Assembly (NCBI GenBank): GCA_038751365.1
Contig: JBCDGH010000003.1
Location: forward strand, 1-56,676
Source: Patescibacteria group bacterium
GTDB taxonomy: Bacteria > Patescibacteriota > JACMRA01
Length of the DNA stretch: 56,676 bases
Direction: 5' to 3'
The position numbers were made by a program, and so were the translations under genes. The notes beneath the pieces were generated by a model. The model made no database searches and was not told where the DNA came from. It worked only from the letters and a program-made list of their open reading frames with translations. Positions 9,229-52,012 of the stretch are shown here, piece after piece (within the stretch, counting starts at the first letter, position 1; every line of letters begins with the position of its first letter).

Positions 9229-12296
<3,068 letters not shown>

Positions 12297-48781: not shown

Positions 48782-48843
48782 ATAGTTTAATTTGAATAAC
48801 TGCAGATATTATAAAACACTTTTTTAATACACGCAAGAGATTT

Positions 48844-50010
48844 TTATGCTACGTATTTAGCAGAGACTAACCCAGCTAAACCTATCATTACAGCATTGTC
48901 CCCAGTTAAACTTATGTCCGGATAAAAACTATAGTCAAATTCATTTTCGTTTTTAATCTTTTCAAAGTAGTTTCTTAATAGTAAATTGGCAGATACGCCG
49001 CCCGACAAACCAATTGACTTTGGTTTATGTTGTCTTGCTGCTAATTTAAACTTATCTACTAACTGATTTACTAATACAAATTGAGCCGAAACACATGTTT
49101 TATAAATTAATTCTGATTTTTCATCTAAATTACTTCCAGTCTTGATTTTCTTTATTTCTACTTCATCTAATTTTTTTTCGAAATTGTAACCGTTTATATT
49201 TCTACTTTGTAAAAAATATCTAACAGCTGTTTTTAATCCTGAAAATGAATAATCTAGCGAGGTATTTTTACGCATACCTACTGGTAGGTTATAATAGTTG
49301 GAGTGTTTAAGTTGAGCGATTTTTGCTATTTGTATTCCTCCTGGGTAGGGTAATCCTAGCATTCTACCTATCTTATCAAGACATTCCCCTGCTGCATCAT
49401 CAAGTGTTTGTCCAATAATTTCCCAGTTATTCCAAGATTTGGATAGTATAATCTGAGAGTTACCACCAGATACCAGGAGATGTAGATGCGGAAAAATTTC
49501 ACTATCCGAAATACTTCGCCTTTTATTAGGCTCGAAAAAACAACTAGAAGTGTGTCCTTTTAAATGGTTTGTTTTATGTATTGTGACTGTTTTGGTGGTA
49601 AAAAGAGATTCAATGTAAAACTTCATTGTTTTGGCAAATTCTAAGCCGACTCTTAAAGCCGAGATTAAACCTGGTTCGCTAGTTACAAAAATTGTATCTA
49701 TATCAGCTAAAATCTGCTTTTCTTGGTTTGAAAAGTTATTTTGAACAGTTGTTTTCTCAGTCATTTGGCTTAATAATGACTTAAATAAAAAGTGTATCTG
49801 CTCAGCGTGCATTCTTGCTCCAATCTCTGGAATTACACCTCCATACTCTTTATGTACTTCAACTTGTGAAGAAATAATGCTAGCAGGTACTGAAAAACTA
49901 TTTATATAGTTGTAGAATGTAGAATCATCAGAGTTTGGTTCTTTAGAAAGAATAGCTAATGAAGTCTCGTCACAACTTGTTTCGATAGCTAAATATAATT
50001 CCCTGCTCAT
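48844..50010 (-). CDS. tsaD: tRNA N6-adenosine threonylcarbamoyltransferase
   Basis: LAIETSCDETS, YGGVIPE, NHLKGH, LLVSGG, TLDDAAGE, YSFSGLKTA, GGVSAN, DNAVMI; start moved to ATG 50010. Confidence 0.96.
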   Translation of the reverse strand: MSRELYLAIETSCDETSLAILSKEPNSDDSTFYNYINSFSVPASIISSQVEVHKEYGGVIPEIGARMHAEQIHFLFKSLLSQMTEKTTVQNNFSNQEKQILADIDTIFVTSEPGLISALRVGLEFAKTMKFYIESLFTTKTVTIHKTNHLKGHTSSCFFEPNKRRSISDSEIFPHLHLLVSGGNSQIILSKSWNNWEIIGQTLDDAAGECLDKIGRMLGLPYPGGIQIAKIAQLKHSNYYNLPVGMRKNTSLDYSFSGLKTAVRYFLQSRNINGYNFEKKLDEVEIKKIKTGSNLDEKSELIYKTCVSAQFVLVNQLVDKFKLAARQHKPKSIGLSGGVSANLLLRNYFEKIKNENEFDYSFYPDISLTGDNAVMIGLAGLVSAKYVA

Positions 50011-50014
50011 AGCA

Positions 50015-50923
50015 TTATTGTTTGTCTTGCCATCTCTTAACAATCTCAGAAATAGGTTGTAAAACATCTGTTTGATGGACTGTTTCCAAGTCGTTAATAA
50101 CTGTAAGTAACCTTTCAAAACCCATTCCAGTGTCAACATTTCTATTTTTTAGGGGGGTGAGATTTCTTGGTTCGTGGTTTTCACCCCATTCTCCTTCATA
50201 TTCCATGAATACATGATTCCAAATCTCTACAATCTCATTCTCAAGAAATTCTTGTATTTGCTGAAGGTTATATTTTTGGAAAAGGTTTTTTCTAAAATCA
50301 ATCGGATTGCGCTTTTGTAAATAATATATCTCACTACATGGTCCGCATGGTCCTTTATATGGCAGACCCCACCAATTATCCTTACCGCTTTTTTGCGTAA
50401 TTCTATATATGTATTGCTTATCCGTCTTGTCGTCCTTGTCAAAATTAAATTCTATACCTACGTCTGGCTCAATACCGACACTTCTAAATGCTCTTTGCCA
50501 AGATTCTATGGATTCTGTATCCGGCAGTGCAAACTCACTCCCCTTATATACTGTAACATATAGCCTTTGAGGGTTGAGATTAAGCCATTTTTCAGAAGTT
50601 AAGAATTCAAACCCCCACATTATAGATTCATCTTTAGAATAATCTCCTAAGCTCCAAGAGCCAAGCATTTCAAAAAATGATAGATGTCTATTGTCACCCA
50701 CTTCCTCTATATCTAGAGTCCTAATACATTTCTGAGAGTCGGCAATTCTCGATCCTAAAGGGTGAGTCTGACCCATCAAATATGGTACTAGTGGATACAT
50801 TCCAGAATTCACAAAAAGGAGTGTTGGATCCTCCTTGGGTAAAATACTTGCTGAAGGGATGACTGCATGTCCTTTGTAATCCATGAAATCTAAAAATAAC
50901 TTTCTCAAAGTTTGTGAGGTCAT
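50015..50923 (-). CDS. alaS: alanyl-tRNA synthetase, N-terminal aminoacylation domain only (302 aa)
   Basis: DPTLLFVNSGM, QKCIRT, RHLSFFEMLG, GPCGPCSEI, EIWNHVFM, VDTGMGFERL, followed by a stop. Confidence 0.92.
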   Translation of the reverse strand: MTSQTLRKLFLDFMDYKGHAVIPSASILPKEDPTLLFVNSGMYPLVPYLMGQTHPLGSRIADSQKCIRTLDIEEVGDNRHLSFFEMLGSWSLGDYSKDESIMWGFEFLTSEKWLNLNPQRLYVTVYKGSEFALPDTESIESWQRAFRSVGIEPDVGIEFNFDKDDKTDKQYIYRITQKSGKDNWWGLPYKGPCGPCSEIYYLQKRNPIDFRKNLFQKYNLQQIQEFLENEIVEIWNHVFMEYEGEWGENHEPRNLTPLKNRNVDTGMGFERLLTVINDLETVHQTDVLQPISEIVKRWQDKQ

Positions 50924-51055
50924 AATTTAATGTCTAAAAGAAAACTTTAGAAATGGCAAGATTCTGACTCAGCTTATTGTCTTGACAAAGTTTAGGTTTT
51001 ACAATACTTATTAAGACTAACAGTTAATAACTTTTATTTAGCTCTAATTATCTGC

Positions 51056-51367
51056 ATGTCTGCAACTAAAATGCGTGTAAAGATTTATTCATTTGATCAT
51101 AATGTGCTCGAAGAGGCGGTAAAGAAGCTCGTTCAGGTAGTAATCAAGTCTGGTGGAAAAGTCAAAGGTCCTATTCCGTTAAAAACTAAAAAGCGAGTGT
51201 TTACCTTGTTAAGGTCTACTTTCGTATACAAGAAATCACGTGATAAATTAGAGTGCAGAGTGCATAAGAGGTTGGTTGATATTAATGAAGTAAATAGTGA
51301 AATTATTAACAACCTTTCTACACTTTCTCTACCAGCTGGAGTAGATTTGAGTATTGAAACAGTTTAA
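51056..51367 (+). CDS. rpsJ: 30S ribosomal protein S10
   Basis: SFDH, GPIPL, HKRLVDI, LPAGVD. Confidence 0.96.
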   Translation: MSATKMRVKIYSFDHNVLEEAVKKLVQVVIKSGGKVKGPIPLKTKKRVFTLLRSTFVYKKSRDKLECRVHKRLVDINEVNSEIINNLSTLSLPAGVDLSIETV

Positions 51368-51388
51368 TTGGTTTAAAAATATAATTAT

Positions 51389-52012
51389 ATGTCTGTTGGT
51401 TTCGCCAAAAAAATCGGGATGACTAGGCTATTTCTGGAAGGGAAGAGTAGAGCTGTTACAGTCTTGGAGTTTAAAGAAAATTTTGTTTTACAAAAGAAAG
51501 TTGTCGATAAGGACGGTTACAATGCTATTCAAGTGGGTAGTGTCAAGAAGAAGAAAGGTACTGCACCTAGGATTGGGCATGTTAGAAAGTACTCTAGCCA
51601 GGACTTCGATTTAAGATTTATTGGTGAATTTAGAGATTTTGAAGTTTCTGAAGATAAGTCTATTTTCGATATAAATGATTTTGAAGCAAATGATGTACTG
51701 GATATTAGTGGGTCTGCATTTGGTAGAGGTTTTGCAGGTGTAGTAAAGTGGCATAGTTTTCGAGGTCAGCCAGCCTCAAGGGGTCACGATCATGAAAGAG
51801 CTCCTGGTTCAATTGGATCAAGGTGGCCTCAACGAGTATTACCTGGAAGAAAAATGGCCGGTCATATGGGTACTAATACTGTAACTCTTAAGAATGTTAA
51901 AGTATTAGCTGTTGATCCAGAGTTGGGACTCTTATTTGTTAATGGCTCAGTTCCAGGCAGCAATAGTAACTACCTTAAGATCAGAAAGGTAGAAGCAATG
52001 GAAAGTAAATGA
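51389..52012 (+). CDS. rplC: 50S ribosomal protein L3
   Basis: KKIGMT, DGYNAIQVG, GRGFAGVVK, RAPGSIG, KMAGHMG. Confidence 0.97.
   Translation: MSVGFAKKIGMTRLFLEGKSRAVTVLEFKENFVLQKKVVDKDGYNAIQVGSVKKKKGTAPRIGHVRKYSSQDFDLRFIGEFRDFEVSEDKSIFDINDFEANDVLDISGSAFGRGFAGVVKWHSFRGQPASRGHDHERAPGSIGSRWPQRVLPGRKMAGHMGTNTVTLKNVKVLAVDPELGLLFVNGSVPGSNSNYLKIRKVEAMESK

Follow-up and report, generated by a model that had tools for sequence, protein, structure and literature searches.

A probable heteromeric alanyl-tRNA synthetase encoded by two or three genes across a class of Patescibacteria

The window analyzed here is a 56,676-nt stretch of DNA from a Patescibacteria group bacterium (contig JBCDGH010000003.1). 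An open reading frame (ORF) of 302 aa on its reverse strand (50015..50923, (-)), which begins with ATG and matches PF01411, is very probably alaS-alpha, the catalytic (aminoacylation) subunit of a heteromeric alanyl-tRNA synthetase (AlaRS), as judged from sequence comparisons. A complementary beta chain is encoded on another contig of the same genome, and a conserved two- or three-gene AlaRS across a bacterial class would be an addition to the split AlaRS known from Nanoarchaeota. The class in question, made up of tiny uncultured bacteria and comprising the same 27 genomes as its order, is known from metagenome assemblies only, 64-93% complete by marker counts, with one of them closed (1.27 Mb). 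We lean somewhat toward a broader reading in which the AlaRS of this class is a kit of separate modules: always at least two chains, cut at a previously undescribed site; in 10 of 25 genomes a three-polypeptide enzyme whose chains are the catalytic domain, the recognition domain's first helical half (~115 aa), and the second half together with the editing domain (~220 aa); and the G3:U70 base pair of tRNA-Ala read without the usual Asn, unlike the textbook mode.

Results

The alpha chain

Alpha has an AlaRS-type class II catalytic domain in which the active-site residues are conserved. The sequence RHLSFFEMLG (residues 79-88; 50660..50689, (-)) forms the conserved class II active-site strand that we take to be motif 2, and DTGMGFERL (residues 264-272; 50108..50134, (-)) lies in the motif 3 region, its Asp presumably being the one that contacts the amino group of alanine (D235 in E. 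coli). The frame stops 30 residues beyond DTGMGFERL with a TAA codon (50015-50017), which is followed by a 4-nt TGCT spacer (stop and spacer, 50011..50017, (-)) and then, on the same strand, by the ATG of tsaD (MSRELYLAIETSCDE...). The first-pass annotation of this ORF had described the length, the two intact motifs, the position of the stop, and the lack of any frameshifted continuation ahead of tsaD, all of which we confirmed from the sequence. In an alignment of 24 alpha chains from the class, which leaves aside that of genome G011 owing to an insertion, 74 columns are invariant, and R79, H80, F84, E85, M86, and G88 of the first motif and D264, T265, G266, G268, E270, and R271 of the second are identical in all 24.

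PF01411 is the only Pfam match of alpha, covering profile positions 2-257 of 552 (E 2.2e-64). The NCBIfam alaS equivalog models match alpha over just their first ~260 positions and far under their cut-offs (248.8 bits versus 529 for NF002436, the short-form model and best match, and 235.1 bits versus 457 for TIGR00344), so that alpha falls short of the score expected of a one-polypeptide AlaRS. An AlphaFold2 model of alpha (predicted local distance difference test (pLDDT) score, 84.5; predicted template modeling (pTM) score, 0.86) forms a single compact domain that ends in a helix at residues 289-299. Fold searches with this model returned AlaRS catalytic fragments as the best matches (E 3.9e-27; query template modeling score (TMq) about 0.72), with bacterial glycyl-tRNA synthetase (GlyRS) alpha chains ranking next.

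The frame is also sound as an assembly product. An 18,680-nt contig from a second assembler (run X1, which is probably the source sample; the second assembly is not independent data) has 0 differences over 48800-51400. This DNA run is the only one found to contain the stretch, with no RNA run among the matches. A misassembly at 50015, which the first-pass annotation had considered, is excluded by this identity together with the recurrence of the same form of the gene in 26 of the 27 class genomes.

The beta chain

A PF01411 search of the assembly that contains the window (G000; 64 contigs, 1.15 Mb, 88% complete) gave two matches only, alpha (profile positions 2-261) and an ORF on contig C2 (250-453), and no full-length alaS. 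The separate gene for the helical and editing domains, which the first-pass annotation had proposed to look for, is thus present: alaS-beta, of 328 aa from its ATG, lies at G000:C2:18406-19392 (= L002:1567-2553, (+)) and matches PF01411 and tRNA_SAD. Its ORF opens at L002:1528 with TTG (1528-2553), and the ATG at 1567 (MSNDYYIIADH...) is the likelier start because the beta chains of relatives begin 5-10 residues ahead of 'YIIADH'. Beta covers PF01411 positions 267-453, followed by the tRNA_SAD editing module, and so supplies in trans both the tRNA-recognition helical domain and the editing domain with its HxxxH and CxxxH motifs. These motifs (H187..H191 and, as CGGPH, C294..H298) do not vary among the 15 beta chains aligned, and the alignment has 76 invariant columns, among them the editing-site HTxTHxLH and CGGPH. 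The AlphaFold2 model of beta (pLDDT 85.0, pTM 0.50) has two modules, with a weak linker between them (residues 164-174).

Alpha and beta fit end to end on the one-piece enzyme. Residues 5-295 of alpha align to chain residues 6-266 of the E. coli fragment 3hxu, and beta aligns to the same chain from residue 274 onward; the two therefore abut at about E. coli 273/274, with no gap and no duplication. On a 590-position AlaRS hidden Markov model (HMM) that we built from 13 fused relatives of the same phylum, alpha spans positions 1-261 and beta 266-585. The beta gene of G000 lies in a fusA/pnp context that is seen in none of the other class genomes, and without recurrence elsewhere we rejected this neighborhood as a sign of functional linkage.

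Distribution of split and fused AlaRS

The alpha-only frame is a property of the class. In a sample of 41 genomes, it occurs in 25 of the 26 from the same family and order as the window, and in each of the 15 that represent other families of the phylum a single frame of 582-644 aa encodes catalytic and recognition domains. Within the class, 26 of 27 genomes, the closed one included, carry the alpha-only frame with its stop in the conserved position; the chains are ~300 aa long except in G011 and 51-70% identical to that of the window. The conservation of the stop in relatives, raised by the first-pass annotation, is thereby established. With all pieces mapped on the 590-position HMM for loci of 25 class genomes, beta was found in every one, as one gene in 15 genomes (G000 among them; 327-350 aa) and as two genes in 10. 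In G041, beta appears as two fragments, each running to a contig end.

Among the 80 best loci, taken from one genome per prokaryote species, alpha-only frames make up the 11 closest (58-67% identity), all of which belong to this group; 68 others extend beyond HMM position 400, and the last is truncated where its locus ends. In a collection of 5.8 billion proteins, the best 120 clusters of 7603 hits are all 289-411 aa long and 57-100% identical to alpha, and the contigs that bear them reach 1.27 Mb. The NCBI labels among these best 120 are 'alanine--tRNA ligase-related protein' or 'hypothetical protein'. In a FastTree phylogeny of the merged AlaRS alignment (a single-gene tree with Shimodaira-Hasegawa-like supports), a single long-stemmed clade (support 1.00) unites the 25 split enzymes and lies among bacterial short-form AlaRSs of the same phylum.

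The sole class genome without alpha and beta, G005, carries a fused alaS of 643-647 aa (L039:195-2126 (-)). This enzyme is 38-39% identical to alpha and beta and groups in the tree with the outgroup enzymes, those of other Patescibacteria families. Its contig measures 3.5 kb, and the gene beside it is 46-67% identical to orthologues from the class and 28-41% to those from the rest of the phylum; with so class-like a neighbor, we rejected a mis-binned contaminant as the sole explanation. The simplest reading is that a one-piece gene acquired by horizontal transfer replaced the split pair, a pattern to be expected if alpha and beta together are the housekeeping AlaRS.

The alpha gene of G011 (L038:2480-5404 (+)) is one open frame of about 974-980 aa in which catalytic positions 1-134 and 150-259 are parted by ~700 aa. 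This insert matches guanylate kinase (E 3.4e-45), a Ham1-like nucleoside triphosphate pyrophosphatase, and a serine hydrolase, and it occupies the surface loop of a ~20-aa insertion common to split-clade alphas. Either a genuine insertion of several enzymes or a chimera made in assembly may account for this frame.

Several other AlaRS-like frames came to light. Three class genomes (G012, G004, and G021) encode a further AlaRS-like catalytic protein, very divergent and 321-373 aa long (PF01411 E 1.6e-8 to 4.7e-12; L072:1558-2679 (-), L073:1052-2098 (-), and L074:1457-2422 (+)), which the PF01411 search did not find in G000. The C-terminal part of PF01411 (~450-552) matches within open frames of relatives, some very long (810-1049 aa) and others the size of AlaX (231-251 aa) (for example, G019:C41:6049-6288, G004:C19:36261-36464, G024:C99, and G009:C23), and no such frame is present in G000. 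In unrelated genomes, namely an archaeon, a metagenome-assembled Saccharibacteria genome, and Terrabacter and its relatives, AlaRS frames with catalytic and recognition domains end at about HMM position 430-438, without an editing domain (L105, L151, L153, L154, and L144-L149).

Cut positions and three-piece enzymes

In every genome, the first cut falls within the variable linker that connects the final helix of the catalytic domain ('..PI..VV.KY/W') with 'YIIADH'. Alpha extends 7 residues past its last aligned position, and beta begins within about 5 residues of 'YIIADH'. We considered and rejected a split gene joined through an intein or intron: the chain ends leave no room for one, tsaD starts 4 nt after the stop of alpha, and no Pfam intein family matches alpha or beta. 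Recoding of TGA was likewise rejected, as alpha ends in TAA and all three kinds of stop occur around the pieces.

In the 10 of 25 genomes with three pieces, beta is replaced by beta1 (110-178 aa as called; HMM 265-375) and beta2 (154-226 aa; HMM 383-589). This second cut lies between '...KEWxKILK' and 'LTPQFLAQKTWDLYQTHG', which in the beta model corresponds to a loop at residues 112-115 between two helices. In G001, which has the same genus label as the window, beta1 and beta2 are neighbors. Between them is an AT-rich spacer of 44 nt in which every frame contains stops, and beta2 opens with an ATG of its own; we therefore rejected a frameshift as the cause. In G018 and G022, two ORFs on the same strand lie between beta1 and beta2 (L055:3176-5082 (-) and L056:2985-4778 (+), respectively), with rplK following; these conserved ORFs (284/256 aa and 346/337 aa) have no Pfam match. 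The remaining seven three-piece genomes have beta1 and beta2 on separate contigs. Stand-alone beta1 proteins (88-179 aa, identity at least 56%) make up about 70 clusters of the protein collection, some of them on contigs of >1 Mb. The three-piece state appears at four separate places on the single-gene AlaRS tree, and the beta1 and beta2 termini are alike in all ten genomes.

tRNA-Ala and selection

Inspection of tRNA-Ala for G3:U70, as the first-pass annotation had suggested, showed the pair in both genes of G000 (GGC and UGC), along with A73 and an encoded CCA end. Across the class, where tRNA genes were called with ARAGORN and acceptor stems were taken from the coordinates, 21 of 21 tRNA-Ala genes, from 21 of the 27 genomes, have G3:U70, A73, and encoded CCA. 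The retention of the pair in all of them implies that it is still being read.

All of the AlaRS pieces are under strong purifying selection. In five genome pairs, the proportion of nonsynonymous differences (pN) for alpha, beta, beta1, and beta2 is 0.10-0.27 versus 0.63-0.96 (saturated) for synonymous ones (pS), and the ratio of the corresponding rates (dN/dS), where computable, is 0.08-0.14 for the same four genes. The first-pass annotation had allowed that relatives might all hold a full-length alaS while the window copy decayed; what we see is a class whose AlaRS is split and whose pieces are conserved by selection.

Genomic context

Downstream of alpha, tsaD (48844..50010, (-); PF00814, E 9.1e-57), which encodes the tRNA t6A37 threonylcarbamoyltransferase, is context only: just 7 of 25 class genomes have a tsaD relative in the ~2 kb that follow alpha, on which ground we rejected the adjacency as a functional linkage. 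The G+C content of the window reaches 0.44 at 10001-12000 versus about 0.35 elsewhere.

Discussion

If alpha is the catalytic subunit of a heteromeric AlaRS, homology suggests that it would bind alanine and ATP, form alanyl-adenylate, and transfer the alanine to A76 of tRNA-Ala, holding the CCA end while having no tRNA-recognition domain of its own. Beta would dock on alpha using the surface that in one-piece enzymes serves as an intramolecular interface, position the acceptor stem, and select G3:U70, and its editing site would hydrolyze Ser- or Gly-tRNA-Ala. The two chains would probably re-form, non-covalently, the C-Ala-less AlaRS of ~600 aa typical of other Patescibacteria, and probably do so as a 1:1 pair because a C-Ala dimerization domain is absent. 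The first-pass annotation had left a choice between a split AlaRS with its beta chain elsewhere and a catalytic-only enzyme that charges tRNA without G3:U70 control or acylates a non-tRNA acceptor. The former is what we observe, with beta on contig C2, and the latter is unsupported as the main role of the protein.

Several points weigh against a heteromeric AlaRS. At 88% completeness, G000 by itself cannot exclude an unassembled alaS, and it is the class-wide pattern that carries the point. Alpha and beta are unlinked, being on different contigs of G000, at least ~24 kb apart judged by the distances to contig ends, and in the closed genome G018 alpha is ~564 kb from beta1 and beta2; co-regulation is accordingly not evident. 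The binding of alpha to beta and the activity of the pair are inferred from homology. The split-clade alphas have also been remodeled relative to fused relatives, with an insertion of ~20 aa and the replacement of a Cys-rich loop: the fused short enzymes (L003-L010, HMM ~175-200) have the loop with a C..C.P.C.C pattern, and the split clade has in its place a helical 'DFE....EIE.FIE' segment.

The remaining point concerns how G3:U70 is read. As described in PMC10036535, an Asn and an Asp of AlaRS hydrogen-bond to G3:U70. The former, A. fulgidus N359 (E. coli N303), aligns to the Gly of 'PSGKQRGY' in the beta chain of G000, which precedes an invariant Lys, and the latter, A. fulgidus D450 (E. 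coli D400), to the Gln of 'LYQTHG'. N occupies the Asn site in 79 of 81 fused enzymes and in 0 of 25 split chains, where the residue is G (21), A (2), or P (2); the Asp site is Q in all 25 split chains, the fused enzymes having D in 46, Q in 24, E in 7, S in 3, and A in 1. The conserved Asn/Asp pair is thus missing from the split clade, for which the canonical read-out, going by these alignments, cannot simply be assumed. PMC10036535 also reports that the Tupanvirus mini-AlaRS and the C. elegans mitochondrial AlaRS are without both residues and still require G3:U70. Loss of the Asn is no argument against function, but the read-out in the split clade would not be the textbook mode.

It seems unlikely to us that the two chains share the work more loosely, with alpha charging tRNA-Ala or its acceptor end weakly on its own and beta acting as a separate tRNA-binding, trans-editing factor (AlaX-like plus a helical domain) outside any stable complex. 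The unlinked genes, the predicted autonomous folding of both chains, and the lost Asn would agree with such an arrangement, as would the N. equitans alpha chain, which is weakly active alone and independent of G3:U70 (PMC11392972). That chain, however, retains half of the tRNA-recognition domain and the class alpha none of it, and even the E. coli fragment 1-368 fails to charge tRNA, according to work cited in PMC11392972; one would therefore expect an alpha such as this to depend on beta. G3:U70 is, moreover, strictly kept in the tRNA-Ala genes, and beta begins exactly where alpha ends, as expected of two halves of one interface.

That alpha is instead a stand-alone paralog which adenylates alanine for a different acceptor, such as a small molecule or a carrier protein, while another or an unassembled gene supplies the housekeeping AlaRS, is very improbable. 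The extra divergent catalytic proteins of 321-373 aa in some class genomes offer a parallel, and NCBI records name alpha just an AlaRS-related protein. Yet neither G000 nor the closed genome G018 has another catalytic AlaRS domain, alpha co-occurs with beta in 25 of 25 examined genomes, G005, which has neither, has a fused alaS, and alpha is 50-68% identical to the 23 other aligned chains, with an invariant active site. The idea of a broken gene, or of an artefact of assembly or frameshifting, has the short length of the ORF in its favor and nothing else. We give it almost no credence, given the same stop position in 26 genomes, the identical sequence from the second assembler, a pN far under pS, and a beta gene that has its own start on another contig.

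A heteromeric AlaRS in these organisms would matter in several ways. A whole bacterial class would break the one-chain rule for this enzyme, at the boundary between the catalytic core and the part that reads the acceptor stem, which is a different place from that in Nanoarchaeota. Natural, co-evolved alpha and beta chains (in some genomes beta1 and beta2) could serve as a test bed for the activities of a bare catalytic core, and would allow one to ask how G3:U70 specificity comes about in trans and without Asn303. With alpha annotated under the NCBI labels given above, such genomes may be scored as lacking alaS.

Comparison with known systems

PMC10036535 describes AlaRS as the one synthetase whose prototype single-chain architecture persists in all of biology, Nanoarchaeota alone excepted. 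The full-text literature that we searched, consisting of main texts outside subscription journals, reports no bacterial split AlaRS and describes one for Nanoarchaeota only. The split enzymes of N. equitans and other Nanoarchaeota resemble those of the class in having two unlinked genes with the catalytic domain on alpha, and both chains are needed for strong, G3:U70-specific charging in N. equitans (PMC11392972 and PMC10036535). The likeness to Nanoarchaeum drawn in the first-pass annotation therefore holds for the two-gene layout; it does not extend to the site of the split, which in the class lies at about E. coli 273/274, right after the catalytic domain.

N. equitans alpha corresponds to about E. 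coli 1-368 and keeps the Asn, its beta carrying the Asp-site motif as 'LYISKG', and work cited in the same paper places the minimal active E. coli fragment at 1-442, 1-368 being inactive in tRNA charging (PMC11392972). The nanoarchaeal cut at ~368 is thus inside the tRNA-recognition domain, whereas the first cut of the class leaves the Asn-site helix in beta. Unlike its nanoarchaeal counterpart, the class alpha has no tRNA-recognition helices and no Asn site, and the class beta is without a C-Ala domain. The Asp site is non-canonical in Nanoarchaeum as well, with Ile where the class has Gln. The second cut of the class falls in the same interval as the nanoarchaeal one, between the Asn-site helix and the 'LYxxxG' motif; by a rough estimate from the alignments it is near E. 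coli 381, ~13 residues from the nanoarchaeal cut, and the two would be convergent in region. Because the split clade nests among bacterial short-form AlaRSs, the bacterial split is independent of the archaeal one. Archaeal AlaRS structures match alpha and beta far more weakly, and the comparison gives no sign of common descent with the archaeal split genes.

Two kinds of one-chain enzyme are also informative. Alpha and beta together match the short-form AlaRS (C-Ala-less, ~600 aa, NF002436), which differs from them in being a single chain, in keeping the Asn (79 of 81), and in having the Cys-rich loop. The Tupanvirus mini-AlaRS and the C. elegans mitochondrial AlaRS offer an Asn-less precedent for the class beta, although both are single chains and the Tupanvirus enzyme is without an editing domain.

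The closest parallel in layout is bacterial GlyRS (GlyQ/GlyS). Its catalytic domain is the closest relative of that of AlaRS, and it has a catalytic alpha chain of ~300 aa with the homologous acceptor-stem 'ATL' domain on beta (bioRxiv 10.1101/2023.05.29.542759). We rejected the possibility that alpha is itself a GlyQ (PF02091), as PF01411 is its sole Pfam match; PF02091 has no match in the G000 genome. GlyS has other domains between its catalytic and ATL parts, unlike the AlaRS of the class, but in both enzymes catalysis and tRNA reading reside on different polypeptides. A split AlaRS of this kind would thus mirror the alpha/beta layout of bacterial GlyRS and bears on models for the modular assembly of these enzymes.

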